Assembly: GCA_964605975.1 (NCBI GenBank)
Contig: CAZSER010000001.1
Location: forward strand, 1 to 39,450
DNA from: an uncultured Gammaproteobacteria bacterium
GTDB taxonomy: Bacteria > Patescibacteriota > Patescibacteriia > UBA11705 > JABHMO01
Length of the DNA: 39,450 nt
Reading direction: 5' to 3'
Part shown: piece by piece, positions 3,038 through 30,065 of the stretch
Layout: each line of letters opens with the position of its first letter
Numbering within the stretch: the first letter of the stretch is position 1
The notes under the pieces: model-generated
The model's database searches: none
Told to the model about the DNA's origin: nothing
What the model saw: the letters and a program-made list of their open reading frames with translations, nothing else
Program-made: the position numbers and the translations under genes

Positions 3038-3052
3038 AATAGTTAGGAAAAC

Positions 3053-6782: not shown

Positions 6783-6785
6783 AAT

Positions 6786-8985: not shown

Positions 8986-9057
8986 AGCTTTTACATTTTA
9001 ACAAAAAAACATAAAAATTAAAAGTTGATAACTATGTTTTTTTTGTTTTAATTTTAG

Positions 9058-9086
9058 GATAAAAAAACTCGCTTGGTTAAGCGAGT
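9058..9086 (-). terminator. intrinsic terminator downstream of purA
   Basis: Minus strand reads ACTCGCTT-AACC-AAGCGAGT followed by TTTTTTT, starting about 10 nt after the purA stop. Confidence 0.7.
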
Positions 9087-9095
9087 GGGTAATTT

Positions 9096-10445
9096 TTAGA
9101 GAGAAATAGTTTCGGAGGCTGTTGGTCCATAAGAGATAATTCTAACTTGCAAACCGGTAATTTTCTCGATAAGTTGAATATATTGGCGAACTTCCTCGGT
9201 TAGATCATCAAAACTATTTCGAGAATTAGGACAAGTAAAAATTTGCTTTATAGGAGAGAGAGTGTGGTAATAGGGGATAACATTTAGCGTTTCTTGAGGA
9301 TTTGTTGGCCAGTAGAAAGTTGTTCCACTTTGGTCTTTTCTGCGGTAACCAATTCCAACTTTTAGTTCCGGTAATCCTACCAAAACATCCAGTTTGGTAA
9401 TTGCTAGAGAAGTAATACCAGCGACTTCACAAGCATATTTAATTTGAGGTAGGTCTAGCCAGCCACAATCTCTTGGTCTTCCGGTATTTGAACCGTACTC
9501 GTGACCGCGCTTTCTAATTTCGGCACCTATTTCATCTTCAATTTTTGTTGGAAATGGACCATTGCCAACTCTGGTGGTATAAGCTTTCATAATTCCAACA
9601 TGTTTAATCGTTGACTCTTGATGGAATAGTCCACTTCCTCCAAGTCCAGAAAAAAGTCCGGTTAAACTGGTATTGCTAGAAGTGACAAAGGGATAAGTTC
9701 CAAAATCTTTATCCAACATAACTCCATGGGCGCTTTGAATAAAGATTGTTTTTGCCCTTGAACACATTTTTATCCCACTATTAACAAAGTTATTTTCTAT
9801 AAAACCTGAATCTTGAAGCTTGTAGCCAAAAGAAATTATTGCTGGCAGTTTTTTTAGTTCTTCCTCATATTCTTGTAAAAAGTTATTATCACCAAAAGAG
9901 GAAATAATCTGTCGATAATAAGCACTGATTTTATCTGTCTTTTGGTAAAACTCTTCTGGTGACAGCCAAAAGTCAAACATTCTTGTTGCGGTATGTCGAT
10001 AGTCTTTGTCAGCATAACAAGGACCAATTCCTCGGCCGGTTGTACCAATAGTTCCCTGCGGACTATCAGCAAAAAATGTTTCTATGAGCTTATCCATTAT
10101 TTTATGCCAAGGCATAATGACATGAGCGCCACCTTGTATTATGAGCTCGGAAGGATCAATTTTTTCACCTCTAATTTCTTCAACCTCAGCAATCTCTTTT
10201 TGGAGAGTTAAGAGGTCAATAACACAACCATTTCCAACAATATTCGTGGTATTATGAAAAACGCCGACTGGCAAATGTTTCAAAACTATCTTTTTGCCTT
10301 GGAAAATAACGGTATTTCCAGCATTCGGTCCACCATTATAGCGACAACACAGATCAAAGTTTCTTCTGGCAAAAAAATAATCAACAATTTTTGCTTTTCC
10401 TTCATCGCCCCATTGGATACCGCTAGCCATAATAATTTCGCTCAT
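9096..10445 (-). CDS. purA: adenylosuccinate synthase
   Basis: QWGDEGKAKIVD P-loop region, GTTGRGIGPCYADK, and the TKLDVL guanine-specificity motif. 449 aa. Confidence 0.93.
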   Translation of the reverse strand: MSEIIMASGIQWGDEGKAKIVDYFFARRNFDLCCRYNGGPNAGNTVIFQGKKIVLKHLPVGVFHNTTNIVGNGCVIDLLTLQKEIAEVEEIRGEKIDPSELIIQGGAHVIMPWHKIMDKLIETFFADSPQGTIGTTGRGIGPCYADKDYRHTATRMFDFWLSPEEFYQKTDKISAYYRQIISSFGDNNFLQEYEEELKKLPAIISFGYKLQDSGFIENNFVNSGIKMCSRAKTIFIQSAHGVMLDKDFGTYPFVTSSNTSLTGLFSGLGGSGLFHQESTIKHVGIMKAYTTRVGNGPFPTKIEDEIGAEIRKRGHEYGSNTGRPRDCGWLDLPQIKYACEVAGITSLAITKLDVLVGLPELKVGIGYRRKDQSGTTFYWPTNPQETLNVIPYYHTLSPIKQIFTCPNSRNSFDDLTEEVRQYIQLIEKITGLQVRIISYGPTASETISL

Positions 10446-10537
10446 TTTGGGCTCCTTGTTTTTTGATCAAATTTAACTACGGCAAAACTTCCCTCAAAAA
10501 GAGAGAGTAGTAGCTTTTTGAAGATTTCGGCATTCAT
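10442..10537 (-). CDS. 31-aa upstream mini-ORF translationally coupled to purA (candidate leader peptide)
   Basis: AAGGAG 10 nt upstream of the ATG at 10537. Encodes MNAEIFKKLLLSLFEGSFAVVKFDQKTRSPK. Its TGA overlaps the purA ATG (ATGA), and the purA SD lies inside its last codons. Confidence 0.35.
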   Translation of the reverse strand: MNAEIFKKLLLSLFEGSFAVVKFDQKTRSPK

Positions 10538-10582
10538 CAATAACAGTCTCCTTATTTAAGTTGATAATGAACACAGTAAAAA

Positions 10583-10611
10583 AGTTTACTGGATAAAAAG
10601 TAATTTGTCAA
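10583..10611 (-). promoter_or_regulatory. sigma70-like promoter for the mini-ORF/purA transcript
   Basis: Minus strand: TTGACA, 17 nt spacer, TAAACT. Confidence 0.5.
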
Positions 10612-10651
10612 TAAAATATTTATCTAAAAAAGTTAAAAACTAGACATCGTA

Positions 10652-10686
10652 ATAAAAAAAAAGAAGCGCTCTTATGGCGCTTCTTT
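10652..10686 (-). terminator. intrinsic terminator immediately after the sugar transferase stop
   Basis: GAAGCGC-(7 nt loop)-GCGCTTC hairpin flanked by an A-run and a T-run. On the minus strand it is followed by a 10-nt T-run. Confidence 0.8.
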
Positions 10687-12120
10687 TTAGGTTTTACTTT
10701 TCCTTTTAAGTATCGCCAAGGGGGTTTTGATCATTATCCAAAAATCCATTTTTAGCGACCAGTTTTCAATATAAAAAGTATCTAATTTAACTTCATCTTC
10801 AAAATCCAGATCGCTTCTTCCAGAAATTTGGGCTAATCCAGAAACGCCCGGTTTGATATCAAGAACTCTACGGTGATGATCGGCATATTGGGCGACTTCT
10901 CTGGGTTGATGGGGGCGAGGACCAATTAAACTCATATTACCAATTAAAACATTAAAAAATTGGGGTAGTTCATCGAGCGATGTTTTTTCCAAAAATCGAC
11001 CAATTTTTGTTCTTCTGGGATCGTTGAGGACTTTATAAACGGGACCTTTTCTTTCAGATTTCTTTTTTATAAGGTCTTTTTCAAGCTGCAAGGCTTTTTG
11101 GGTGTCGGCATATTTAACAAACTGTTCACCAGTGCAATATTTAACATACATGGAGCGAAATTTGTAAACATAAAAATTTTTATTTTTACTAACTCGTTCA
11201 TTTTTATAAATTGCTGGCCCCCAGTCTTCTAGTCTGATCACAATAGCAAGGACAAGCATTAAGGGGGCAAAAATTATAATTAAGATAAGACTAAAAACAA
11301 CGTCAAAAAATCTTTTGGCAATTCTACCCCAGCCGTCAAGTTTAGTTTTTTTGATTTCAATTATTGGTATTCCGGCAAGAACATGAACATCAATGTTTGT
11401 GGTCATGGATTCAAACTGTCCAGCGGTGTATTTAAAACTGATATTGTGTCGATTGCAAAAGGCAATTAGTTCAACACTTAATTTGCGAGAAAGTGAGCTA
11501 TCGGCTTGAATTATTTCATCAATAATTTTTTGTTTGTGTAGTTCTATTAATTCTGAATAATCATTTTGTTCAAAATTTCTAATTCGACCAATTATTTTAT
11601 AACCAAGTTCTTTTTGAAAGTTAAATGTTTCAATAAGTTTTTCGGTGTTTTTGTCATTGCCGATAATTACCACATTATGAGCTCCCCAACCAATTTTTTG
11701 AGAATAGTTTTGGAGTTTTCTGATAATAATTCTCCCAATAATTAGAAAAATGATAGAAATTATCCAAGCGGTCAAGACAATAAAACGAGAAGAAAACATT
11801 TCACGAACAAAAAACATATAAATAATTACTGAAGACAAACCAAACGAGGTGGCAATAATAATTTTGGCGATTTCATCAGTAATTTTACGACGAGAAAAAG
11901 AATAAAGCCCGGAAATAGCAAAAGAAATTAAACAGATAAGAGAAGTTAAAATCACGACCAGTAGATATTTTTCAAAAGGGAGGTCAAAGACGATTGGGCG
12001 AAATCTTTGGATCGTTTCATCATACCGAATAAAATATGACAAAATCCCTGCGAAGAGTAATAACAAAAAATCAGTAGGAATTTTTAAAAAAGTAAAGAAA
12101 AGGTCAGCTTTCTTTTTCAT
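10687..12120 (-). CDS. polyprenyl-phosphate glycosyl-1-phosphate (priming) sugar transferase, WbaP/bacterial sugar transferase family
   Basis: Multi-TM N-terminus. C-terminal catalytic domain has DELPQFFNVLIGNMSLIGPRPH and ENWSL motifs typical of the family. Confidence 0.9.
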   Translation of the reverse strand: MKKKADLFFTFLKIPTDFLLLLFAGILSYFIRYDETIQRFRPIVFDLPFEKYLLVVILTSLICLISFAISGLYSFSRRKITDEIAKIIIATSFGLSSVIIYMFFVREMFSSRFIVLTAWIISIIFLIIGRIIIRKLQNYSQKIGWGAHNVVIIGNDKNTEKLIETFNFQKELGYKIIGRIRNFEQNDYSELIELHKQKIIDEIIQADSSLSRKLSVELIAFCNRHNISFKYTAGQFESMTTNIDVHVLAGIPIIEIKKTKLDGWGRIAKRFFDVVFSLILIIIFAPLMLVLAIVIRLEDWGPAIYKNERVSKNKNFYVYKFRSMYVKYCTGEQFVKYADTQKALQLEKDLIKKKSERKGPVYKVLNDPRRTKIGRFLEKTSLDELPQFFNVLIGNMSLIGPRPHQPREVAQYADHHRRVLDIKPGVSGLAQISGRSDLDFEDEVKLDTFYIENWSLKMDFWIMIKTPLAILKRKSKT

Positions 12121-17430: not shown

Positions 17431-19284
17431 TTATTTATTCCAATTGCGAGTAGTTTTGATATACCAAGAAGTAATATTGGCAAAACGATTTGCCGGAGTA
17501 ATAATTTTTTTTATGGGAGAACTTTTTAGAATTTTATGTTGAGGATAAGTATAAGTAGAGCTATAAAGAAAAATCGCTGGAACATTATCCGTCAAAATTT
17601 TCTGAAAAGAGATATATTTTTGTGCTCGATCTTCTGGTTTAATTGTTTTCCGAGCTTCCTCTAAAAGTTTATCTGCTTCGGAAGAACCAAAAGAGGTTAA
17701 ATTTAAACCGGGAGAAACTTTTTGGCTACTATGCCAAAAAGGATAAGGATCAGGATCTGCTCCCAAAATTTGTCCATAAAGAAGAGCTTCATAATCTCGT
17801 GAAGCGATAATTGTGGAAATATTTTCTTTTTTGACAAATTTTAAATTAACTTTTACTCCTAACTGCTTCCAATCACTTTGAATCTTTTTGGCTACCTTTA
17901 CGATTTCCGCTTGTTCTACCGTGGTTAAAGTAAACTCAAGAAATCTATTACCATGTTTTCTTACTTGAAAAGGATAAGGCTCGGAAGATTCATTTTCAAC
18001 CGGATATTCGTTTAATTTCCAATCTGATTTTTCTAAACTTTCTCTGGCTTCTAAAATGTTAAATTCTAGCTTGTTAAGGTCTTCGGTATATCCTAAATAA
18101 CCGTTTAGGATAGGGCCATTAATAGTTTGAGCTTCGGCATTTTGAAGTTCATTTATCAATTGATTTTTGTCGATTCCTTTTGCTAATGTTTTTCTAATTT
18201 CTAACTCTTTTAAAATTGGGTTTTTTTCGTAATTAAAGAAAACGGCCGTATATTGGGGAAGTTGTAATAAATTGAAATTAATGTTTCGATTATTGATAAT
18301 TCTATCCCGCAGTTCTTTTGGTAGATAACTTAATCCATCAATTTTTTTGTTATTTAAAGCATCAACGGCCAAATCAAAAGATTCATAAAATTTCAGATCA
18401 AACTCTTCAATATATGGTTGTCCAAAATGGTATTGATTATTGTTTGTAAAAGTAAAGTTTTTGATCTTGCCGTTAGCGTTTTTTGTCAAAGAAGAAAATT
18501 TAAAAGGTCCAGACCCGATTGGTTTGAGGTTATATTCGGCCAATAACATGTTTTCCGGTTCAATGTTTTTCCAAATATGTTCCGGTAGGATACCAACGGT
18601 TAAATTTTCCAAGAAGGGAGAAAACGGTTCTGACAATGAGATTTTTAGACTGTTTTCATCAATTTTTTCCACCAAAACTCCTTGAAAATTATAATAAAGT
18701 GGTGTTTTACTTCGAGGGTTTTGGATTCTGGAAAAAGTAAATAAAACATCTTCGATATCTAATTTCTCACCATCATGGAAAAAAACATCTGATCGTAGTT
18801 TGATGGTATAAACTTTTTGGTCTTCTGAAATTTCAAAACTTTCGGCAACATCTGGGATAATACCTTCGGCGGAATACTTAAAAAGTCCGGAATAAATAAT
18901 TTCAACTAAGTCTAAATCTACATCATTTCCTTGTGCAAATAGTGGGTTGATATAACGAGGAGCACCAACTAAACCTTCGGAATAAGTTCCACCAATCTTT
19001 GGTTCGAGCGAAGAATTTTGCCAATAGATATTTAAACAAAGTGCAATCACGCAAACAAAAACTACTCCGAATAAAACACGGATGACTAATCTCTCTACAT
19101 CACTTAGGTATTTAAATGAATAAATAAGCTGTTCTTTGGTAGGGAGTTTTCTCTTGGTGTTTAGTTTTTGAACGAGGAGTTCATCATGACGATGAAACCT
19201 TTTTGTTTTTTTTTGCCAATCATTTCTTTTAAACTTAGATAGTTTTTTTAAAATGAAGGCTGAGATTTTTTTGAATAATGACAC
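17431..19284 (-). CDS. ABC-transporter family-5 (peptide/nickel type) substrate-binding protein, N-terminally membrane-anchored
   Basis: 617 aa. TM helix VIRVLFGVVFVCVIALCLNIYW, followed by an SBP_bac_5-like body (YTIKLRSDVFFHDGEKLDIEDVLFTF; GSGPFKF). The only in-frame start before the TM helix is a GTG at 19284. Confidence 0.8.
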   Translation of the reverse strand: MSLFKKISAFILKKLSKFKRNDWQKKTKRFHRHDELLVQKLNTKRKLPTKEQLIYSFKYLSDVERLVIRVLFGVVFVCVIALCLNIYWQNSSLEPKIGGTYSEGLVGAPRYINPLFAQGNDVDLDLVEIIYSGLFKYSAEGIIPDVAESFEISEDQKVYTIKLRSDVFFHDGEKLDIEDVLFTFSRIQNPRSKTPLYYNFQGVLVEKIDENSLKISLSEPFSPFLENLTVGILPEHIWKNIEPENMLLAEYNLKPIGSGPFKFSSLTKNANGKIKNFTFTNNNQYHFGQPYIEEFDLKFYESFDLAVDALNNKKIDGLSYLPKELRDRIINNRNINFNLLQLPQYTAVFFNYEKNPILKELEIRKTLAKGIDKNQLINELQNAEAQTINGPILNGYLGYTEDLNKLEFNILEARESLEKSDWKLNEYPVENESSEPYPFQVRKHGNRFLEFTLTTVEQAEIVKVAKKIQSDWKQLGVKVNLKFVKKENISTIIASRDYEALLYGQILGADPDPYPFWHSSQKVSPGLNLTSFGSSEADKLLEEARKTIKPEDRAQKYISFQKILTDNVPAIFLYSSTYTYPQHKILKSSPIKKIITPANRFANITSWYIKTTRNWNK

Positions 19285-19295
19285 AAATTATTGAT

Positions 19296-19324
19296 AAAAC
19301 AGACCCTTGTTCGGGGTTTGTTTT
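19296..19324 (-). terminator. terminator/attenuator-like hairpin between secG and the SBP gene
   Basis: Imperfect hairpin AAAACAAACCCC-loop-GGGTCTGTTTT (one mismatch on the minus strand) followed by a T-run, lying between the secG stop and the SBP start. Confidence 0.35.
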
Positions 19325-19551
19325 TAAGCTTGAAGCAAAATGTTAACAAAAGAAATTCCCAAAAATAGAACAGCAAAAATAATAGTCAAAATAAAGATTG
19401 TTTTTTCCATTCCTCTCTTGGTGCGATAAACATTCCCGGCACCAGATCCACCAAAAACACCAGAAAGTCCGCCTTCTTTGTTTTGTAATAAAACTAATAT
19501 AATTAAAACAATAGCAGAAATAACCTGTAAAATAGTAATGATAGTATTCAT
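19324..19551 (-). CDS. secG: preprotein translocase subunit SecG
   Basis: 75 aa with two TM helices around a Gly-rich loop (LLQNKEGGLSGVFGGSGAGNVYRTKRG). The ATG at 19551 is preferred because the consensus promoter overlaps the longer TTG-start ORF. Confidence 0.85.
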   Translation of the reverse strand: MNTIITILQVISAIVLIILVLLQNKEGGLSGVFGGSGAGNVYRTKRGMEKTIFILTIIFAVLFLGISFVNILLQA

Positions 19552-19589
19552 AAAATAGGAGTTTGTATTTGATTGTATAATCAAAAGGA

Positions 19590-19618
19590 ATTATAGCAAG
19601 CTCATTTTTTATTGTCAA
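19590..19618 (-). promoter_or_regulatory. consensus sigma70 promoter of secG
   Basis: Minus strand: TTGACA, 17 nt spacer, TATAAT (perfect consensus). Confidence 0.65.
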
Positions 19619-19731
19619 TACCTAAGGGGGATAAAATAGCTAAAATAAAACAATTTAAGCTGGATGTTGGAGGCTCTTCGGGGGATAACTTTATTTCTAT
19701 AAACAACTTTTTATGTTATAATTATTAAAGT

Positions 19732-20475
19732 ATGGAAAGCAATCAATTTAATCCTCAAAAAAATAATCAAATGGAGAAAAAAGCTGTAAAGTGGTGGGTT
19801 TTTATTTTGTTTTTTATTTTGGCTTTTATAGCTATGATGGTTCCCGTTTTTTTGTCACAGTTTTTTTCTATTTATGGACAGGCCAAAAAGGGGACTTATG
19901 TTTTTGAAGAAGAGCTAAAAAGAGAACCTCCTTTTCAGCCAGAAGAGTTTATGAGTCCCACTTCTTCTTGCATGGGGGCGGAAAATCCCAAGTTGACTAT
20001 TGTTGAGTTTGGTGATTTTAACTGTTCTAAATGTGCGGATTCTCATGAGATTATTAAAAACATAATGCAAGAATATGGAGAGGTTGTTCGTTTTTGTTGG
20101 AGAAATATGGCCATTTTAAGTGAGAGTTCTTTGAGTATGGCAATGGCCGGTGTTTGTGCGGAGAAGCAGGGTAAATTTTGGGAGGTTCATGATGCTTTTT
20201 TGCGGGCAAGAGGAACTTTTTTTGATGAAGATCAATTTTTTCAGGCAATTTTTGATCAAGGGGTTGATCAAAGCAAGTTTGAAGTTTGCATGAAGCATAA
20301 ACTTACAGAAGCTGAAATTAAAAAAGATTATTTTGCTTGGCGAGATTTGAATTTGATGGGAACGCCAACCTTTTTTGTTAACGGCCACAAGCTAGAAGGA
20401 GTTATTCCTTTGGATATTTGGCAAAAACTAATTCCATATTTTGTTAGCGTATATGACCAAAAAAATCCAAATTAG
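19732..20475 (+). CDS. DsbA-family thiol:disulfide oxidoreductase, membrane-anchored
   Basis: N-terminal TM helix (WWVFILFFILAFIAMMVPVFL). Thioredoxin-fold CxxC site FGDFNCSKCADSH. C-terminal GTPTFFVNG (cis-Pro loop region). Confidence 0.85.
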   Translation: MESNQFNPQKNNQMEKKAVKWWVFILFFILAFIAMMVPVFLSQFFSIYGQAKKGTYVFEEELKREPPFQPEEFMSPTSSCMGAENPKLTIVEFGDFNCSKCADSHEIIKNIMQEYGEVVRFCWRNMAILSESSLSMAMAGVCAEKQGKFWEVHDAFLRARGTFFDEDQFFQAIFDQGVDQSKFEVCMKHKLTEAEIKKDYFAWRDLNLMGTPTFFVNGHKLEGVIPLDIWQKLIPYFVSVYDQKNPN

Positions 20476-21010
20476 ATTTCATGGACGAGGTGGACAAGGA
20501 ACGGTCACTTTGGCTGATTTAACGGCGAGGTCCGCTTTTTATAATGGTTATGAAGTGCAAGGTTTTCCTAGCTTTGGAGTAGAGAGGCGTGGTGCGCCAG
20601 TGGAAGCTTTTGTGCGAATTTCTACAGAAAAAATTTTAACTAGAGAACAAATTTATTCTCCTGATTTTTTAATTATTCAAGATGAAACTTTATTAAAGTC
20701 CGAAGATATTGTTTTGCATGGAGTGAAGAATAAAACAGTAATTATTGTCAATAGCAATAGTCAGGAAATTCCAGCCATTTTATCGGGGAAAAAGGTTTTT
20801 CTTTTTCCTGCCGAAACTTTGGCGATAAAAACTATTGGTAAACCTTTTGTTAACACAATTTTATTAGGAGTTTTGGGTGTTTTGAGTGATCTTTTTGATG
20901 AGGATTCAATGGATAGAGCAATCAAAGAGGTAATAAAAAAAGAAGTAGTTGATTTAAATCTTCAGGCTATGAAAGAAGCTGTTTCCGAAACTAAGAAAAG
21001 ATTTTTATGA
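20453..21010 (+). CDS. porG: 2-oxoacid (pyruvate):ferredoxin oxidoreductase, gamma subunit
   Basis: IRFHGRGGQGTVTLADLTARSAF matches the gamma-subunit signature. The ATG at 20453 overlaps the DsbA-like gene by 23 nt. Confidence 0.9.
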   Translation: MTKKIQIRFHGRGGQGTVTLADLTARSAFYNGYEVQGFPSFGVERRGAPVEAFVRISTEKILTREQIYSPDFLIIQDETLLKSEDIVLHGVKNKTVIIVNSNSQEIPAILSGKKVFLFPAETLAIKTIGKPFVNTILLGVLGVLSDLFDEDSMDRAIKEVIKKEVVDLNLQAMKEAVSETKKRFL

Positions 21011-21276
21011 AAAATAAAATAGTTGCTTTGCCGGGAACAACCAAAGAAAACAAAACAGGGGATTGGAGAACTCATCGTCCGGTGGTTGATCATGACCGTT
21101 GTATCGCTTGTGGTAATTGTGCCCGTGTTTGTCCCGAGGGGTGTGTTTTTCCGGTAGGAGACAAGGCATTACAAGGAAAAATTTTTTATGAAAATGATTT
21201 GGATTATTGTAAAGGTTGTGGTTTATGCGCCGAAGAATGTCCGGTAAAGTGTATTAAAATGGTGAAGGAGGAATAA
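21007..21276 (+). CDS. porD: 2-oxoacid:ferredoxin oxidoreductase, delta subunit (2x[4Fe-4S] ferredoxin)
   Basis: Two CxxCxxCxxxCP motifs (CIACGNCARVCP, CKGCGLCAEECP). ATGA overlap with porG. Confidence 0.92.
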   Translation: MKNKIVALPGTTKENKTGDWRTHRPVVDHDRCIACGNCARVCPEGCVFPVGDKALQGKIFYENDLDYCKGCGLCAEECPVKCIKMVKEE

Positions 21277-21311
21277 AAAAGAATACAAGGACAAAAAAAC
21301 AAAAGAACAAT

Positions 21312-21418
21312 CCAATTTGTCATTTCGAGCTTGTCGAGAAATCTCAAATTGGGAAAATTGTAAACTGCAGTCATGAGATCTCTCCAGGCAATTCGTTTAG
21401 TCGAAATGACAAAAAGAG
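21312..21418 (+). repeat. palindromic MITE/REP-like intergenic repeat, copy 1
   Basis: Terminal inverted repeats TTGTCATTTCGA (21317-21328) and TCGAAATGACAA (21401-21412), with inner arms GAGAAATCTC/GAGATCTCTC. Shares conserved blocks with the inverted copy at 34218-34327. Confidence 0.7.
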
Positions 21419-21498
21419 GAAGCAAGGCGAAAAAGAAAAAATGGGAAAAATTTTTAAATTGAGAAACTGTATTCACTAATTTTTTACTTTTTATTTAT

Positions 21499-22629
21499 AT
21501 GCGAAAAATAACGGAAGGATCTTTGGCCGTGGCGGAAATTATCAATATGTGTCGTCCTCAGGTTGTTTCTGCTTATCCAATAACGCCACAAACTCATATT
21601 GTTGAAGAGTTAGCAAAGATAAAGGCCAATGGGCAAGGATCTTTTGAATTTATTAGAGCCGAAAGTGAGTTCTCGGCGGGATCTATTGTTTTAGGCGCAA
21701 GTGCTTCCGGCGTTCGTGCTTATACGGCAACAAGCTCACAGGGGTTGCTTTATATGACGGAGGTTTTATTTACTATTTCGGGAATGCGTTTGCCATTGGT
21801 AATGACTTGTGCCAATCGAGCTATTTCGGCACCGATTAATATTTGGAATGACGAACAAGATAGCATGACCGTTCGTGATGCTGGTTGGATTATGTTGTAT
21901 GCAGAAAATAATCAGGAAGCTGTTGATTTTCATCCCATTGCCTTTAAAATTAGTGAACAGTTAAATATCCCTGTTATGGTGAATATGGATGGTTTTGTTT
22001 TGACTCATACCATTGAACCGGTTGATATGCCCGATTTGGAATTAATAAAAAATTATTTGCCAGAAAGAGTTCCCCTTGGTGGCGAGTATTTGGATGTTAA
22101 TAATCCTGTAAGTTTGGGAAGTTTAGTTACTCCTGAATATTATCAACAAATTAGACAAGATCTACATAATGATTTGGTTTCTTCACAAAAAACAGTTAAG
22201 CAAGAGATGAAAAATTATGCTCAGATTTTTGGGCGAGGTTTTGGAGAATTAGTTGAGTATTTCGGAAATCACAAGGCTTCGACAGTAATTGTTTCAAGGG
22301 GCTCTGTTTGTGGAACAATTAAGCAAGTTTTGTCCGCTTATCCTGATGTTGCTTTGGCAAGATTAAAATGTTATCGACCTTTTCCTGTCGAAGAGTTAAA
22401 AGAAAAACTAAAAAATGCCAAAAACATTATTGTTTTGGAAAAATGTTTATCTTTGGGAAAGGGAGGTCCAGTTTTTTCGGAAGTTCGAGATGTCCTATGG
22501 GGAATGAAAAATATAAAAAAAATCAGATCTTTTATTGGGGGGTTGGGAGGTCGAGATATTACCGAAAAAATGGTTATTTCCATGATCAAAAAAAGTAAAT
22601 TACCAAATGAAAAAATGATTTTATTATAA
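21499..22629 (+). CDS. porA: 2-oxoacid:ferredoxin oxidoreductase, alpha subunit
   Basis: 376 aa. N-terminus GSLAVAEIINMCRPQVVSAYPITPQTHIVEELA is typical of the alpha subunit. Confidence 0.92.
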   Translation: MRKITEGSLAVAEIINMCRPQVVSAYPITPQTHIVEELAKIKANGQGSFEFIRAESEFSAGSIVLGASASGVRAYTATSSQGLLYMTEVLFTISGMRLPLVMTCANRAISAPINIWNDEQDSMTVRDAGWIMLYAENNQEAVDFHPIAFKISEQLNIPVMVNMDGFVLTHTIEPVDMPDLELIKNYLPERVPLGGEYLDVNNPVSLGSLVTPEYYQQIRQDLHNDLVSSQKTVKQEMKNYAQIFGRGFGELVEYFGNHKASTVIVSRGSVCGTIKQVLSAYPDVALARLKCYRPFPVEELKEKLKNAKNIIVLEKCLSLGKGGPVFSEVRDVLWGMKNIKKIRSFIGGLGGRDITEKMVISMIKKSKLPNEKMILL

Positions 22630-22634
22630 AAATT

Positions 22635-25067
22635 ATGATGAGGCAAAAAACAAAAAAAATAATGTTTTTAATTTCTTTATTTGCGGTAGTGATTTCATTT
22701 TTACCATTTAATGTTGTTTTGGCGGAAGAAGAATTACCTTCTGGAATAATTAAAGAAATGGAAATAAAAATTCCTTTTGGTGATTTGCCTACAAAGCTAG
22801 GTGGTGTCGAGGTTGTTCGTTGTGATTCTGGTGAAAGTTGTCCGGCGGGAGATAAGGCGTGTGAGGCGCGTCGTCAAAAAAGTTGTGTGACAATCCCTTG
22901 GTTGGCGATGTATATTTCGGCCGCTTATAGATATGCTGTCACTCTCGGGTCATTAATTGCAGTATTAACTTTGATGATGGGTGGTGTCTTTTATATTTCT
23001 GGCAAAGAAAGTTATATCTCCAAAGGAAAAGAGATGATGGTGGGAAGTGTTACGGGTTTGGTTTTTTTGATTGGTTCTTATTCTATTTTGCATTTTATCA
23101 ATCCTGATCTTTTGAAACTAAAGGCGATAAATATAGAGATTGTTAAACAACAAGAAAATATAGCAGTTTCTTTTTGTAGCGAAATCAAGGATATTTCTAA
23201 TTATACTTTTTATGATGAAAATAGCACAGTCGTTGATGTTAAAAAATTAACTTGCGGTAAAAAATACTCTTTTATTTCCAACGATCCCAAAATAGTTAAA
23301 TCGGGTGAATGTGTAGGTGATTTCTGTTTGGATGATTCAGCTTGGTGTATGCCTACTTGTGATACGCTTGTTAGTAGTGGTTATTGTTCTGGTTCCTTGG
23401 CCTCTTCTAATTATGCATGTCACAAAGAATTTGGATTGTGGGGAATTGTCACGGGAGATCCAGAGCGTTATTTAGATCATGCTTGGGTTTATAAAAAACC
23501 ACCGGGAAACCCAATTACTTCAACTAATTTTAGTCTACTTAGTATTGATCCAGGAAAAGATACTTACATTTATGCTTTTAGTAAAGAGAAATTAGCTGAA
23601 GAGATAGAAAAAGTGAGTACGCAGGATATTGTTCTTTTAATTGAGTTGAATGATTCAACTGCTCAGGCCGTTAGTGAAGCTTATAATACGCAAGGACTTT
23701 TTGATAAAGGTTTGAAATTTGTTGCGCAAACAATAGGACCAAGTTTGGATGATGAGTATCAAGTTTTGCCTGGTGCTGGTAAAAGAATAGGCCAAACGGG
23801 GATGTTTTATTCTGAAGGAAAATGGGCAAAGGCTTGTTCAGCGGGAATTTGTGCTATTGGGACTTTTAAAGGTCCAGAATCTTATCATTTTGCCACTACG
23901 GCGATCTCGGGGGCTGATTGTAAATGGCTTGATACTTATTATTTTTCTAAAACTAGTAAAGGTATTCGTTTGGATATAAATGTAAATAATTTTAGAGAAA
24001 ATACCAAGTTAGATTGTGATTATTTTGAAAAAAACACGAAAGTTGTTGGGACAAAAGAGATTGGCAAAGCATGTTCGGATCCTGATGAATGTATAAGTGG
24101 TGATTGTGAGTCCGTGGGTGGAATTAAACAATGTGAATGCAATGAAACTTCTGACTGTTATAACCCAAAAGAAAAAGAATTAAGAGCCGGTGCTGACGCT
24201 AATTTATTGTATTGTAAGAAAGAAATATCAACATGGAATATCTGTACGAAGGGGCTATCTTATGGTATGACATGTAATACTTCTGATAGTAAACCATGTA
24301 TTGGAGATATGATTTGTCAAAATCAGGGAGGTGGGGTAGCAACTTGTGCTTGTACAATGGATAACGATTGTGTTATTTCATTGGGAAATCCATACTTGCC
24401 ACAAGGTCAAATGAACTTGGCAAAATGTCAGAATGGAAAATGTTTACAAAAAGTAGAGCCTAGACCTGTTGACTGGATGGATACTTTTGGACCAAAGGGG
24501 AAAGTGGCGCATCCGGATAATAAGTGTAAGAATAATTCTGACTGTTTTTCTGATCTTTGTGTTAATGGGGTTTGTATGTGTGACAAGAATGACCAATGTC
24601 ATTATTCTAATACTTTTTGTAATAATCCTATCTCAGAAAATGGTTTTTGTGTAAAGAAAAAAGAAGTTGGAGAGGAATGTAATGTCTTAATGCTCAGTTC
24701 TTGTGTTAAAGGATCTTCTTGTAAGATGGTAAATTTTTACAAAAATGAGCCGGCCGTCCCGAGGTGTTCTTGTGATAGTGATGAGGCATGTCCTAATGGT
24801 GAAAGATGTATAAAGCATGATCAACCGACTTGTGGCTATAATTATTGTCACAAAAGCGATCAGCAAGTTCTTACTGTAGACAAAGATTTTGATTCTACAA
24901 AGAATCCAGCATATAAAGATAAACCTTATTGGGGTTTATGTAAAGAGTTTGATGATTGTAGTGATCCTACGATGGCTCAAAATCAGAAAACAAATAAATG
25001 TTATTTGGGTGATTTGGGATGTCGAATTTGCATGACCAAAGAAACTTATAATAATTTGAATAAGTAA
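22635..25067 (+). CDS. exported cysteine-rich protein with N-terminal signal peptide, two-helix membrane hairpin and four C-terminal 8-Cys modules
   Basis: 810 aa, ~54 Cys by my count. Signal peptide IMFLISLFAVVISFLPFNVVLA/EEE. TM pair AVTLGSLIAVLTLMMGGVFYI and MMVGSVTGLVFLIGSYSILHFINPDL. C-terminal repeats of the pattern C-x3-6-C-x3-4-C-xn-C-x-C-x3-4-C. Starts 5 nt after porA and ends 13 nt before porB. Confidence 0.85.
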   Translation: MMRQKTKKIMFLISLFAVVISFLPFNVVLAEEELPSGIIKEMEIKIPFGDLPTKLGGVEVVRCDSGESCPAGDKACEARRQKSCVTIPWLAMYISAAYRYAVTLGSLIAVLTLMMGGVFYISGKESYISKGKEMMVGSVTGLVFLIGSYSILHFINPDLLKLKAINIEIVKQQENIAVSFCSEIKDISNYTFYDENSTVVDVKKLTCGKKYSFISNDPKIVKSGECVGDFCLDDSAWCMPTCDTLVSSGYCSGSLASSNYACHKEFGLWGIVTGDPERYLDHAWVYKKPPGNPITSTNFSLLSIDPGKDTYIYAFSKEKLAEEIEKVSTQDIVLLIELNDSTAQAVSEAYNTQGLFDKGLKFVAQTIGPSLDDEYQVLPGAGKRIGQTGMFYSEGKWAKACSAGICAIGTFKGPESYHFATTAISGADCKWLDTYYFSKTSKGIRLDINVNNFRENTKLDCDYFEKNTKVVGTKEIGKACSDPDECISGDCESVGGIKQCECNETSDCYNPKEKELRAGADANLLYCKKEISTWNICTKGLSYGMTCNTSDSKPCIGDMICQNQGGGVATCACTMDNDCVISLGNPYLPQGQMNLAKCQNGKCLQKVEPRPVDWMDTFGPKGKVAHPDNKCKNNSDCFSDLCVNGVCMCDKNDQCHYSNTFCNNPISENGFCVKKKEVGEECNVLMLSSCVKGSSCKMVNFYKNEPAVPRCSCDSDEACPNGERCIKHDQPTCGYNYCHKSDQQVLTVDKDFDSTKNPAYKDKPYWGLCKEFDDCSDPTMAQNQKTNKCYLGDLGCRICMTKETYNNLNK

Positions 25068-25080
25068 AACCAACCCTTTT

Positions 25081-25971
25081 ATGCCTTATAAAATGCCTTT
25101 TCGTCATTTATTAAATCCCGGTCATACGGCCTGTGCTGGTTGTGGTGAGTTATTGGCGATGCGTCATGTTTTGGAAGCGTCCGGTTCACAAACCATTGTT
25201 GCTGGGGCTACCGGTTGTGGAGAAGTGACAACCACCAAATATCCAACTTCATCATTCAAGATTCCATGGATCCATGCTAACTTCGAAAACTCGGCTCCGG
25301 TTATTTCGGGAATTTTGGCCGGTTATCGTGCCAGAGGTCAAAAACCACCGAATTTAATTGCTTGGGGTGGTGATGGCGCAACTTTTGATATTGGCTTGGG
25401 AATGTTAAGTGGCGCATGGGAGCGTGGGGACGATTTTTTGTATGTCTGTTTTGATAATGAGGCTTATATGAACACTGGGGTTCAGTCTAGTGGGTCAACA
25501 CCTTATGGTACGAACACAACAACAACACCTCCGGGAAGAAAATCGACAGGAAATAATTTGGTCAAAAAAGATATGATCAAAATTGCCTTAGCACACAATT
25601 TGCCTTATGTTGCGACGGCAACCGTGGGAAATGTTTTGGATATTCAAAATAAGGTGCGCAAAGCGCTAACATTAAAAGGCCCGAAATATATTCAAATTTT
25701 GGTTACCTGTATTCCGGGGTGGTATACCGAAGCAAAAGATACAATTAAAATTGCCAAATTGGCTTCGCAAACCGGAATTTATCCGGTGGTTGAATATATG
25801 GATGGAAAGTTAACCGGTGTTGCCAAATGTCCAAATCCCCGACCCAAAGTTGAAGAATATCTGAGGTTGCAAGGGCGTTTTAAACATCTTTTTCAGAGTG
25901 AATCAGGAGCGGAGGAACTTGCTAAAATTCAGGATTTGGCTGATCAAAATGTTGAAAGGTATGGATTATAA
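25081..25971 (+). CDS. porB: 2-oxoacid:ferredoxin oxidoreductase, beta subunit (TPP-binding)
   Basis: GHTACAGCGE N-terminal Cys cluster and GGDGATFDIG...CFDNEAYMNTG TPP-binding motif. Confidence 0.92.
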   Translation: MPYKMPFRHLLNPGHTACAGCGELLAMRHVLEASGSQTIVAGATGCGEVTTTKYPTSSFKIPWIHANFENSAPVISGILAGYRARGQKPPNLIAWGGDGATFDIGLGMLSGAWERGDDFLYVCFDNEAYMNTGVQSSGSTPYGTNTTTTPPGRKSTGNNLVKKDMIKIALAHNLPYVATATVGNVLDIQNKVRKALTLKGPKYIQILVTCIPGWYTEAKDTIKIAKLASQTGIYPVVEYMDGKLTGVAKCPNPRPKVEEYLRLQGRFKHLFQSESGAEELAKIQDLADQNVERYGL

Positions 25972-25984
25972 ATTTAAATAGTAA

Positions 25985-26011
25985 AAAGAGGTTATCAAGA
26001 ACCTCTTTTTT
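25985..26011 (+). terminator. intrinsic terminator of the por operon
   Basis: AGAGGTT-(6 nt)-AACCTCT followed by TTTTTT. Confidence 0.75.
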
Positions 26012-26012
26012 A

Positions 26013-26041
26013 TTGACATTTATTTTATAATAATCTAAACT
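26013..26041 (+). promoter_or_regulatory. candidate promoter of the M48-like protease gene
   Basis: TTGACA, 17 nt spacer, TAAACT. A GGAGG SD lies 6 nt before the ATG at 26082. Confidence 0.5.
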
Positions 26042-26081
26042 AGCAATTCTTGTTCGTTAAAATCTAATTCGGAGGTTTATA

Positions 26082-27059
26082 ATGGAAAATCGTAGCTCTT
26101 TTTGGGTTTCGCCGTTTTGGCAAATTTTCAGTTTCTTTTTTATTTTAATTTGTGGTTCTGCACTTTTTTTCCCTGTTGTTGTTGTTGATTTGATTACTGG
26201 GTTTTTTAGTGCCTCGTTGGTGTCTAATTTATCGATATTGTTTATTGTTGGTTTTTTTTTCAACTTTCTTTATAGTGAGTCAGTTTATTACAGAAAAATC
26301 AATCTTTTGAACGGGGTAATCTTCGGTATTATTTTTGTCTCCGTTCCCAGCATTATTGCTTTTTTGTTTGAGAATGACCTTTTTTGGATAGTTCCAGTCG
26401 TTCTGATTGCTTTGGGACTTTTTAATTTAATTCTTGTTTGTTTTTTATTAAAGCGATTTAGGGGGAGAACGCCAGATGACTACGACAGAGTTAATGATGT
26501 GATTAAAAAGGTTAGAGAAATATCAGGACTTAATTTAGAAGTTTTCTATTCTGAAATATTTGCCTACAATTCTAATAACGATTCAGTCCTTATTTCTGAT
26601 ACATGGGACTCATTCATTACCGACAAAGAACTAGAAGCTCTTCTTTTGCATGAGTTTGCTCATGCTCATAGGCGTTTTTATATCTGGGGGAGTTTTTTGT
26701 TTGAGAAGGTTTCTTATTTTATCGTTTTATTTATAGCCTTGTGGTTGGTTAATGGTTTTTTGGATAGTGGTAGATTTGAGTTGTGGTGGATGTTTTTTAT
26801 CTTTGTTAGAAGCTCATTAAATTTTTTAATAATACTGATAACCTCTTTTGTTAAAAGAATAGAGGAGTATCGTGCTGATCACTATGCTTTTCAGAAAATG
26901 GGAACAAATAAAGAAATAATAAGTTCACTTGAAAAGTTAGAAAATTCTTATTTTCAAACAGAAAAAAAGAGTCGCTGGTTTGGGAGATTTGATCTTTTTT
27001 CAGATCATCCCAAATTAGAAAAAAGAATTAGACGCCTGCGAACCTATACAATCGGATAG
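26082..27059 (+). CDS. polytopic membrane zinc metalloprotease, M48 (HtpX/Ste24-like) family
   Basis: HEFAH (HExxH) zinc site, downstream EEYRADHYA glutamate, and C-terminal [12 protein letters not shown] as in HtpX-type proteases. Several TM helices. Confidence 0.78.
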
Positions 27060-27194
27060 AGTTCTAAAAACTGGTTAATAACCAGTTTTTTTTCGCTCTT
27101 TACAGTCCATTTTTTTTTTGCTATGATTTCAGGCAAAGTGGCTTCACAAAATCTGTCGGAAAAAATAAAAAATGAAGTCGATAAAGTGAAAAGT

Positions 27195-30065
27195 ATGGAA
27201 AACAAAATTTCGATCAAAGGTGCCAAGGTTAACAATTTAAAAAATATTGATATCGATATTCCACGCAATAAATTGGTGGTTATTACTGGATTGTCGGGAT
27301 CAGGGAAGTCTAGTTTGGCTTTTGATACGATCTATGCCGAAGGTCAGCGCCGATATGTGGAAAGTTTGTCATCGTATGCTCGGCAATTTTTGGAAGTAAA
27401 AGATAAACCGGATGTGGATCAAATTACCGGTCTTTCTCCTGCTATTGCTATTGATCAGCGGTATAGTGCGCAAAATCCTCGTTCTACCGTAGGAACAATT
27501 ACTGAAATTTATGACATGTTAAGGTTGATGTTTAGTCGAATTGGTCATCCGCATTGTCCTAAATGTGGTCAACCAGTTGGCAGACAAACGGTGGAGGAAA
27601 TTACCGAGAAAATTTGGGCTTTTGGCAAGAAAGTTAATGTGACTATTTTGGCTCCAATTGTTCGAGACCAAAAAGGAACGCACAAAAAAGTTCTGGATGA
27701 AATTCGCAAAGCCAACTATTTTCAAGTTCGGTTGGATGGTCATCTCTATGGTATCGAAGAAGCAGAAAAAATAAATTTAAATCGAGAGCAGAAACATACA
27801 ATTGAAATTGTTGTTGATCGAGTTTTGTTAGATGGTGATCGTGAAACAAAAACACAGTTAGCAGAGTCAGTCAAGGTGGCCATTGATTTGGGAAATGGTT
27901 TAGTAATTGTTCTTCGCTCTGATGAAAATAAGGATACCGTTTTTAGTCAATATTACACTTGTCCAAAATGCCAGATTGATTTACCGGAAATTGAGTTAAG
28001 AAGTTTTTCTTTTAACTCTCCTTTTGGGGCTTGTCCTGCTTGTACAGGGCTTGGTGTTCGACAAGAAGTTGATCCGCAGTTAGTAATTAGCAATCCTCGT
28101 TTAACTTTGGCGCAAGGAGCAATTAAACCTTGGACCAAAATTTTTTCCAATCAACCAATGATTTGGCAGTTATTGACGGCAGTTGCTCAGAAAAATAGTT
28201 TTTCTCTGGATGTCCCCGTAGAAAAATTAAGTAAAAAAGCTCGGGAAATAGTGCTGATGGGAACTGGAGAAAAAGAGTATTTAATTGCTGGGAAGAAGAT
28301 GGTCTTTGAGGGTGTTTTGCCGGGATTAGAAAAAAAATATCGAGAAACGGATAGTGAATATATTCGCAAAGAGATTGAAAAATACATGCGTCAGCATCAA
28401 TGTAATGTTTGTGGTGGTAAAAGATTAAAAAAAGAAAGTTTGGCGGTGACGGTTGGTGGCTTGTCAATTGTTGATTATACCGAAAAGTCTTTGAATGATC
28501 TTTTAAAAATGGTTTCCGAGTTGTTGTTAAGTGGTAATTACGAAACGAAAAAAAATTTACCCCAAAAAGATTTTCAATTTATTAAAGAGGCTTTGAGTAA
28601 AAATGAAATAAAAGTTGCGGGAGCAATTATTAAAGAAGTTGAAAGAAGAGTTGGGTTTTTGCGTAATGTTGGTTTGCAATATTTAACTTTGGATAGGGGC
28701 GCCAATAGTTTATCGGGTGGAGAGGCACAAAGAATTCGTTTGGCTACACAGTTAGGTAGTTCTTTATCAGAAGTTATTTATGTTTTGGATGAGCCTTCAA
28801 TTGGTTTACATCCGGCCGATAATACAAAATTGATAGAAACTTTAAAAGATTTAAGAGATAAAGGGAATTCTGTTATTGTTGTGGAACATGATCCAGATAT
28901 GATGAATTCTGCCGATTATATTATTGATATTGGGCCAGGTGCTGGAATTTATGGTGGAGAAATTGTTGCCAAAGGAACATTAGAACAAATCAAAAAAACA
29001 AAATCCTTAACCGGTAAATATCTGTCTGGTCAAATAACTATCGAAAGGAACTGTTCTTTGCGTAAAGGGAATGGTAAGTTTATTGAAATCAAGGGAGCCA
29101 AAGCGTTTAATTTGAAAAATATCAATGTCAAAATTCCTTTGGGTAAATTAATTTCAATTACCGGTGTCTCTGGTTCCGGAAAATCAACTTTAATGACTGA
29201 TATTTTGGCCAAAGCTTTGGCAAGACATTTTTATCGGGCCAAAGATTTACCAGCGGAACATAAAGAAATTGTTGGTTTGGAAAATATTGATAAAGTAATT
29301 ACTATTGATCAATCGCCAATCGGAAGAACTCCCAGATCTAATCCAGCTACTTATACCGGAGTTTTTACTTATATTAGAGATCTTTTTACGGAAGTTCCGG
29401 AGGCAAAAATAAAAGGATATAATGCCGGACAGTTTAGTTTTAATGTTAAAGGCGGAAGATGTGAATCTTGTGGTGGAGATGGGATGATAAAAATTGAGAT
29501 GCAATTTTTGCCGGATGTTTATGTGGAATGTTCGGAGTGTAAGGGGCGTCGTTATAATAAAAAAACTTTGGAAATTCATTATCGTGGCAAAAACATTTCT
29601 GATGTTTTGGATATGACTGTTACTGAAGCAAAAGCTTTTTTTGGGGATACTCCAATAATCAAAGAAAAGTTAAATTTATTAGAAGAGGTTGGATTGGGAT
29701 ATTTAACTTTGGGACAGTCCGCAACAACTTTATCCGGAGGTGAAGCGCAAAGAATTAAATTGGCAACAGAATTAAGTCGTTATGCAACGGGTAAAACTTT
29801 GTATATTTTGGACGAGCCAACAACCGGATTACATTTTGAGGATATCAAAAGACTATTATTTATTTTGAATCGTTTAGTTGACAAAGGGAATACCGTTTTA
29901 ATTATTGAACACAACTTGGATGTAATAAAAAATTGTGATTGGTTGATTGATTTAGGTCCAGAAGGTGGTTCGTCTGGAGGACAATTAGTTGCACAGGGGA
30001 CTCCCGATGATGTTGCTAGCTGTACAGAATCTTTAACAGGGCAATATTTGAAAAAAGTTATTTAA
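27195..30065 (+). CDS. uvrA: excinuclease ABC subunit A
   Basis: [65 protein letters not shown] aligns with the canonical UvrA N-terminus. Two ABC modules (LSGGEAQRI twice) and zinc modules (CPKC..., CESCGGDG...CSECKG). The track start at 27123 adds 24 non-conserved residues. Confidence 0.95.

Follow-up and report, generated by a model that had tools for sequence, protein, structure and literature searches.

What is a gene for an exported, cysteine-rich protein doing inside the gene set of a central cytoplasmic enzyme, and is its placement there meaningful? The question is raised by a 39,450 nt stretch of DNA (contig CAZSER010000001.1 of assembly GCA_964605975.1), which was analyzed over its whole length and is referred to here as the window. 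It is deposited under the name of an uncultured Gammaproteobacteria bacterium and placed by GTDB within the Patescibacteriota. The genes for the four subunits of a 2-oxoacid:ferredoxin oxidoreductase of the pyruvate type (POR), porG, porD, porA and porB, are split in the window by a same-strand 2.4-kb gene, here designated X, whose product is predicted to carry a two-helix membrane hairpin and a large cysteine-rich part. An earlier account made from the letters alone (the sequence-only reading) had described X as a surface protein welded to fermentative metabolism. We favor the explanation, at a probability of roughly 0.6, that X is a Sec-exported, hairpin-anchored, DsbA-folded and diverging surface protein of the contact type, expressed from the promoter of the por operon.

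A hairpin-protein gene between porA and porB

X is an open reading frame (ORF) at 22635–25067 on the + strand, with an ATG start, 810 aa and 54 cysteines. Five nucleotides separate the porA stop (22629) from its ATG, and 13 nt separate its stop from the porB ATG (25081), so that both spacers and the cysteine count proposed earlier were confirmed on the sequence, as was the interruption of the porG-porD-porA-porB set by ORF coordinates, Pfam and NCBIfam. All four subunit domains of POR were found, and the best NCBIfam names for the flanking genes are PorA, PorB, PorC and PorD, though under the equivalog cut-offs. Neither the 5-nt nor the 13-nt spacer has a + strand site resembling a terminator in a consensus scan, and promoter-like matches did not exceed those in shuffled sequences, in keeping with the earlier description of both junctions. 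Cysteine makes up 6.67% of X as compared with 0.84% in the remaining 32 window ORFs. A word-indexed search returned just three full-length relatives, all metagenomic and with 31–34% identity to X, and among these four sequences 45 of the 54 cysteines are invariant as compared with 96 of the 756 other residues (13%), which argues for structural disulfides.

The three full-length homologues lie in the contexts dsbA-porG-porD-porA-X-porB-...-uvrA (locus L001), X-porB-...-uvrA (L002) and X-porB (L003). The X alignment, scanned against 185,579 species genomes, gave 13 loci, nine of which have a hairpin gene between porA and porB (L004, identical to L001, L005–L008, L010, L012, L013 and, in part, L009), and four of these nine have a second hairpin gene directly 3' of porB. 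As an independent and unbiased sample, 80 metagenome loci were retrieved via porB. Where porB identity is at least 54% and dsbA/uvrA neighbors are present, a porA-porB gap of 1.5–3 kb contains a hairpin ORF (L017, L018, L020, L023 and L029–L035), with L024 as the single exception; in 51 loci with porB at 45–57% and without dsbA/uvrA neighbors, porA and porB are contiguous and there is no hairpin domain. A hairpin-domain gene thus fills the slot in 18 or more distinct loci from a clade of Falkowbacteria-like Patescibacteria, in which porB identity falls to ~47%, and the named records are of Candidatus Falkowbacteria and of 'Patescibacteria group' metagenome-assembled genomes (MAGs). In these loci the slot genes span 0.6–2.7 kb and encode proteins of 206–907 aa with 2–70 cysteines, and their stops lie −3 to 75 nt from the porB start in all cases. 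The 'welding' to por is therefore a conserved feature, and contiguous porA-porB in related genomes, which the sequence-only reading had set down beforehand as the observation to look for against it, was not the arrangement found within the clade.

The title 'uncultured Gammaproteobacteria bacterium' is borne by several of the GTDB representative MAGs that carry L007–L013. The loci of these MAGs are colinear with those of Falkowbacteria/Patescibacteria MAGs and have identities to the window of 61–75% for uvrA and 42–51% for the SBP_bac_5 gene (SBP5), and the deposited names are probably wrong.

The slot gene appears to have travelled with its neighbors. Pairwise divergences of the hairpin and of porB rise together (Mantel r=0.85, a value reached in 0 of 5000 permutations), and identities in the homologue loci are 30–34% for X, 59–69% for porA, 66–81% for porB and 78–82% for uvrA. 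Conservation within X is highest in the hairpin (55–56% identity), and the ectodomain has 20–32%. The middle domain is graded over the clade, being complete in the nearer loci and recognizable by its first 90 residues in the farther ones, GC content is continuous across the locus, and flanking repeats are absent. Together these comparisons indicate one ancient insertion followed by vertical descent and fast divergence, such that the slot would have been created once in the clade ancestor and inherited since.

Other origins were considered and rejected. A recent horizontal insertion was rejected on the Mantel co-divergence, and a mobile-element origin was set aside on the lack of flanking repeats, the continuous GC content and a codon-frequency profile that is broadly similar (r=0.76, a value without benchmark on other genes). 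A 23S_rRNA_IVP (Avd-like) gene (L003:92–508, − strand) precedes the X homologue in L003, a locus without an adjacent porA, and a diversity-generating retroelement target was considered for this reason; neither a template/variable repeat nor a reverse transcriptase was found. Repeats in 19000–27500 do not go beyond chance-level AT-rich matches, and Pfam scans of the window contain no reverse transcriptase domain.

The membrane hairpin, its family and the ectodomain

Hydropathy maxima in X fall at residues 8–30, 100–123 and 134–155, the first corresponding to a predicted signal peptide and the others to hairpin helices at approximately 100–123 and 134–155, joined by the ten-residue loop KESYISKGKE; the hairpin contains no cysteine. 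A full-length AlphaFold2 (AF2) model places helices at 88–121 and 125–155 (pLDDT 45), so that, as predictions, the signal peptide proposed earlier is backed by hydropathy and the hairpin by both approaches. Because two more membrane passes follow the signal peptide, the cysteine-rich C-terminal 650 residues are predicted to be extracellular, with or without cleavage of the signal peptide. The cysteine pair that precedes the hairpin belongs to a motif, C-x5-8-C-x-IPW, that is found again in most dsbA-linked hairpin proteins.

X matches PF18895 (T4SS_pilin) at 17.5 bits (E=0.0044), the gathering cut-off being 26.6 bits, and two genes in the same slot clear that cut-off (L007:9539–10810, 33.2 bits; L008:9827–10792, 29.5 bits). 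A hidden Markov model (HMM) built from X homologues matches an array of small pilin genes in L016 at 1e-16 to 1e-22, and one member of that array scores 30.6 bits on PF18895. On this chain of profiles the X hairpin is assigned to the Patescibacteria VirB2-like pilin family as a divergent member, and the likeness to VirB2/T4SS_pilin suggested from the letters alone is supported, X itself being sub-threshold. Searched with a profile, 1.84 billion cluster representatives gave 15,614 matches at E≤1e-3, nearly all of which cover the hairpin alone (profile positions ~85–180), and approximately ten have the whole X architecture. The earlier statement that X matches no recognized system was consequently too strong, as the hairpin family has ~15,600 representatives and has already been described in Patescibacteria (PMC12102498).

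The L016 array (L016:9734–20070) consists of about ten small T4SS_pilin genes (98–145 aa), nearly all cysteine-free. It is followed by a gene for an 879-aa protein in which the hairpin is C-terminal (residues 803–877), and the scanned 10-kb flank contains no virB4-like gene. In L007 a hairpin paralogue directly 3' of porB (L007:11740–12939) has a Peptidase_C39_2 ectodomain (E=8e-7), which suggests that the same anchor presents different functional domains.

VirB2 and TraA pilins have both termini on the periplasmic side, an arrangement that would let a C-terminal fusion show on the filament exterior. X could then be a true subunit of a type IV secretion system (T4SS) pilus, a minor or tip pilin polymerizing via its hairpin, with the cysteine-rich domain along the filament or at its end. 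Homology of the hairpin to PF18895 pilins fits such a role, as does the presence in Patescibacteria of T4SS clusters with several variable, essential pilin genes (PMC10633639, PMC12102498), the VirB2-like pilins being essential in Southlakia (PMC10633639). However, at 810 aa, with 650 aa beyond the hairpin, X falls well outside the size of small mature pilins (~70–130 aa), and a 650-aa appendage on each subunit is hard to fit into helical pilin packing. In L034, L014 and the L016 protein of 879 aa the hairpin is in mid-protein or C-terminal, a placement more suggestive of a general-purpose anchor. Pfam recognized no T4SS component among 33 window ORFs (≥110 aa, plus porD), and no virB4 or virB6 was found in the 39-kb window or in the vicinity of L008 and L016, so that a true pilus role is unsupported, and we regard it as unlikely.

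The region beyond the hairpin has several parts. The ~300-aa middle region described earlier as cysteine-poor is present, but it contains 12 cysteines, eight in a subdomain at residues 156–270 and four in the 200-aa region that follows (271–470). It forms a beta-rich ectodomain common to ~16 cluster representatives, for which there is no Pfam match in any of 17 sequences and no match to PDB sequences with the 17-sequence profile. Its AF2 model (pLDDT 70.5, pTM 0.71) is mostly strands, and Foldseek with this model gave no match, the best E being 0.011 (PDB) and 0.028 (BFVD) with TM ~0.1, all to generic Ig-like beta-sandwiches. The full-length model, made from a four-sequence alignment (pTM 0.28), was too poor for structural comparison and gave only noise in Foldseek.

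The four tandem 8-Cys modules are real by both spacing and module alignment. They lie at residues 480–537, 547–603, 631–672 and 682–733 with the spacing C-x5/7-C-x4/5-C-x4..14-C-x-C-x5-C-x5..18-C-x4..9-C, and the module cysteines are invariant across the X homologues. No match to PDB sequences was found for the C-terminal modules. Resemblance to Dickkopf/EGF-like folds, also proposed earlier, is weakly supported: the EB module (PF01683) matches X at 15.3 bits (E=0.02, cut-off 24.3), X has no Dickkopf_N (PF04706) match in the Pfam scan, and orthologue P0002 reaches 23.5 bits on Dickkopf_N (E=6.9e-5, cut-off 25) and 20.8 bits on EB (cut-off 24.3), so matches exist but all are under the gathering cut-offs. 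The likeness may reflect convergent cysteine spacing. The sole NCBIfam match on X, to HAD (E=0.015), was rejected as spurious.

Transcription, the DsbA-like gene and competing explanations

Within 19706–19731 there is an extended −10-like element, TGTTATAAT, which ends ~9 nt upstream of the dsbA ATG and suggests a candidate promoter that would give a near-leaderless transcript of the whole dsbA-porB cluster. The six genes from dsbA to porB have no obvious Shine-Dalgarno sequence, and an M48-family peptidase gene beyond porB has GGAGG. In the window the porD-porA spacer is non-coding and 222 nt long (21277–21498), other operon junctions being 5–13 nt or overlapping; in relatives this junction is 10–130 nt or is occupied by an inserted gene. 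An internal promoter or an RNA element might lie in the 222-nt spacer.

Independent transcription of X from a promoter in the 3' end of porA would deprive its position in the por cluster of regulatory meaning. A weak TTACCA-16-TATTAT match (9/12) stops 8 nt short of the ATG, at 22627, and several relatives have upstream spacers of 160–190 nt. Matches of this kind are nonetheless at chance level in AT-rich DNA (23 promoter-like matches found in the region, 25 expected from shuffles), and porB would still need read-through from X across 13 nt, or −3 to 75 nt in relatives. We consider this explanation improbable.

The putative operon begins with a gene for a DsbA-like thiol:disulfide oxidoreductase that has a CSKC motif and an N-terminal hydrophobic membrane anchor, and that overlaps porG by 35 nt. 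A transmembrane segment is predicted at about residues 22–49 in homologous products of related loci, and the protein is presumably extracytoplasmic. The gene dsbA is upstream of porG in every clade locus with sufficient upstream sequence and in 0 of the 51 non-clade por loci, a feature that was missed in the earlier emphasis on coupling to por. In three loci without por, one to three hairpin genes come immediately after dsbA (L011:9242–13281, L014:8446–11005 and L015:8437–12303); L011 retains the outer neighbors of the window locus, with SBP_bac_5 upstream and uvrA downstream. Either por was lost from loci of the L011 type, or por entered an existing dsbA-hairpin cluster. The dsbA-linked hairpin proteins typically have a cysteine pair before the hairpin and a cysteine-rich ectodomain, whereas eight of the ten small pilins of the L016 array, in whose vicinity there is no dsbA, are cysteine-free. 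As dsbA and hairpin genes occur together without por in L011, L014 and L015, the natural functional partner would be DsbA rather than POR. Action of DsbA on disulfide-rich exported substrates would be the most economical functional link, and the dsbA link is more likely to be functional than the POR link.

Direct coupling of X to POR has nonetheless to be weighed. The hairpin protein might tether or organize the oxidoreductase at the membrane, or the operon might coordinate the flow of reductant from POR through ferredoxin to a thioredoxin-type carrier with extracytoplasmic disulfide formation or isomerization in organisms without quinones. Tight placement exactly between porA and porB over deep divergence, co-divergence of the slot gene with porB, and the joining in one operon of dsbA, four Fe-S/TPP (thiamine pyrophosphate) enzyme genes and cysteine-rich exported proteins are all consistent with such coupling, as is an exported folding catalyst, a cyclophilin lipoprotein, encoded between porD and porA in L024. 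However, the sole cytoplasmic part of X would be the loop of ~10 residues, which is too small for a docking surface, and the slot ectodomains are not conserved in length or cysteine content. Moreover, L011, L014 and L015 have dsbA and hairpin genes without por, L024 has por without a hairpin gene, and 51 other por loci work without one. We regard the coupling as very unlikely, and the por genes are most likely transcriptional neighbors of X rather than biochemical partners.

A broader conjecture, to which we would give even less weight, is that dsbA-porGDA-hairpin-porB constitutes a functional module in which reduced ferredoxin from pyruvate oxidation is wired, transcriptionally or by electron transfer, to the oxidative folding or isomerization and display of disulfide-rich host-contact proteins in quinone-less, non-respiring Patescibacteria. 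If true, construction of the adhesive surface would keep pace with the flow of carbon from the host.

Finally, a neutral insertion without function, in effect a hitch-hiker or a gene in decay that a streamlined genome has yet to lose, might be imagined given that these operons tolerate other genes (a GxxExxY-like ORF in L005, the 23S_rRNA_IVP gene in L003, the M48 peptidase gene in the window), but the intact ORFs in at least 18 loci, the 55% conserved hairpin, the invariant cysteines (45 of 54, as compared with 13% of other residues) and the lengths kept across 30%-identity homologues argue for purifying selection and largely refute it, leaving it scarcely credible.

In the favored explanation X would be exported by Sec and held in the cytoplasmic membrane by its VirB2-like hairpin, with both termini outside. 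The 650-residue C-terminal part would be displayed externally as the beta-rich domain followed by the four 8-Cys modules, with up to ~25 disulfides that the DsbA-like enzyme of the operon would make, and the ectodomain may contact a host cell or a substrate in the manner of an adhesin. Retention of the hairpin while the ectodomain diverges fast or is replaced fits such a contact role. The por genes would be transcriptional neighbors, and X would share the promoter of an operon that is central and highly expressed.

Several points weigh against this. L024 is a clade member without a hairpin gene, showing that the slot is not obligatory. X itself falls under the PF18895 gathering cut-off, and its surroundings, like those of L008 and L016, yielded no virB4/virB6. 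Co-transcription with por is deduced from the 5-nt and 13-nt spacers and the conserved gene order, and in some clade loci 160–190 nt (610 nt in L031) separate porA from the slot gene, which leaves room for a separate promoter. The ectodomain is without a fold match, and 'adhesin' is an analogy. Lastly, the favored explanation does not account for the persistence of the slot specifically between porA and porB.

Among the prime candidates for host recognition in Patescibacteria, which spend their lives attached to other cells, are the variable surface proteins and the VirB2-like pilins, the latter being essential in the single species examined by genetics (PMC10633639). The locus adds a subfamily of proteins that are hairpin-anchored and disulfide-rich and have a previously unrecognized 320-aa ectodomain, and the consistent DsbA-like partner raises the question of how extracellular disulfides are formed in organisms without a respiratory chain. 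An operon in which core fermentation and surface-protein genes are interleaved is a test case for regulatory meaning versus inherited accident in streamlined genomes, and the dsbA-porGDA-hairpin-porB layout is usable as a synteny marker of the lineage. The clade-wide operon, the dsbA-hairpin linkage and the 320-aa ectodomain were not met in a limited open-access keyword search, which cannot establish that they are undescribed.

Neighboring features and comparison with known systems

The features of X and of the flanking genes are collected in Table 1.

Table 1. Parts of X and flanking genes in the window, with the basis for each assignment.
Feature	Position	Strand	Basis
dsbA-like thiol:disulfide oxidoreductase, first gene of putative operon	19732..20475	+	Thioredoxin_4 2e-23 (83.7 bits), DSBA 2e-12 (48 bits)
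porG (gamma subunit)	20441..21010	+	PF01558 3e-37; TIGR02175 171 bits, over cut-off
porD (delta, 2x[4Fe-4S])	21007..21276	+	Fer4_7, Fer4; TIGR02179 94.8 bits, over cut-off
porA (alpha)	21499..22629	+	POR_N 8e-70, PFOR_II 2e-17, NCBIfam PorA_Arch 3e-126
X: predicted signal peptide, residues 1-31 (...FNVVLA/EEE)	22635..22727	+	hydropathy peak 8-30, K/R-rich n-region, VLA motif
X: short N-terminal segment, predicted extracellular, residues 32-85, 4 Cys (C63, C69, C76, C84)	22728..22889	+	includes Cys pair preceding hairpin
X: VirB2-like/T4SS_pilin two-helix membrane hairpin, residues 86-170	22890..23144	+	PF18895 E=0.0044; HMM from X homologues 101.5 bits
X: beta-rich ectodomain, residues 156-478 (~320 aa), 12 Cys	23100..24068	+	AF2 mostly strands; no fold match
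X: four tandem 8-Cys modules, residues 474-740	24054..24854	+	spacing and module alignment; module HMM finds them in orthologues
X: C-terminal tail, residues 741-810, 5 Cys	24855..25067	+	Cys positions, homologue alignment
porB (beta, TPP-binding)	25081..25971	+	TPP_enzyme_C 2.5e-17, NCBIfam PorB 3e-102

Other genes are also found within or beside the por cluster. In L024 a gene for an exported, lipoprotein-type cyclophilin (a peptidyl-prolyl isomerase) lies between porD and porA (L024:2382–3116), the porA-porB spacer is occupied by a 62-aa cysteine-rich ORF, and a gene for a 944-aa, 46-Cys exported repeat protein with neither a Pfam match nor a hairpin lies between porB and uvrA (L024:5535–8369); the por operon seems to collect genes of the extracytoplasmic proteome. 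In L005 a 138-aa GxxExxY/PD-(D/E)xK-like ORF is present between porD and porA (L005:7111–7527). Small genes of the GxxExxY-like and 23S_rRNA_IVP types are often inserted in genomes of the Candidate Phyla Radiation (CPR). The M48 gene of the window (26082–27059), which encodes a polytopic peptidase, is located between porB and uvrA, was found in the window only, and has its own promoter-like site (TTGACA-17-TAAACT, 26013–26041); in relatives this interval is empty or contains unrelated small coiled-coil ORFs. Elsewhere in the window, two adjoining large cysteine-free genes on the − strand (1106–5662), of 643 aa (DUF11) and 869 aa (DUF4012), adjoin a cluster of three GT4 glycosyltransferases and a sugar transferase (5640–12120). 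The region looks like a second envelope or surface locus, cysteine-free in contrast to X.

The por genes themselves are ordinary members of their families in the usual order of the four-subunit POR operons of archaea and anaerobic bacteria (porG/C-porD-porA-porB). In the 51 comparison loci porA and porB are contiguous, whereas in the window and throughout the one Patescibacteria clade a gene for an exported protein lies between them and dsbA precedes porG. The DsbA-like protein resembles DsbA/BdbD-type oxidoreductases encoded beside their substrates in having a thioredoxin fold, a CxxC motif, a membrane anchor and an operon shared with cysteine-rich exported proteins, whereas here genes for a cytoplasmic enzyme are interleaved, which is unusual for such an operon, and the action on X is a supposition.

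X shares with the VirB2-like pilins of Patescibacteria (PF18895; TrbC/VirB2, PF04956; PMC12102498, PMC10633639) a signal peptide, two hydrophobic helices and a short charged loop, as well as high sequence variability (~25% identity inside pilin arrays). Those pilin genes form variable arrays, sometimes with a non-pilin gene interposed (PMC12102498, PMC10633639), and the order of hairpin gene, porB and hairpin gene in L007, L008, L010 and L012 is array-like in the same manner. Unlike classical pilins (~100–130 aa), X bears a 650-aa cysteine-rich ectodomain, and unlike classical VirB2-like pilins it is linked to dsbA and lies inside a por operon, without adjoining virB4 or other T4SS genes.

The modules of X are, like Dickkopf_N and the nematode EB module, short, with 8–10 cysteines and a C-x-C element, but every score is beneath the Pfam gathering cut-offs and the modules gave no usable structure model. 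Large, cysteine-rich and strain-variable extracellular proteins for which a role in attachment has been proposed are encoded by CPR bacteria of the Peregrinibacteria (PMC4736985). By description X is like these in being large, exported, very rich in cysteine and strain-variable, and the genome there encodes a disulfide-bond-formation protein; the Peregrinibacteria proteins differ in averaging ~1,650 aa and in having no reported VirB2-like hairpin anchor or metabolic-operon setting. In its type, X is a variant of known things, the Patescibacteria VirB2-like hairpin protein and the cysteine-rich CPR surface protein.

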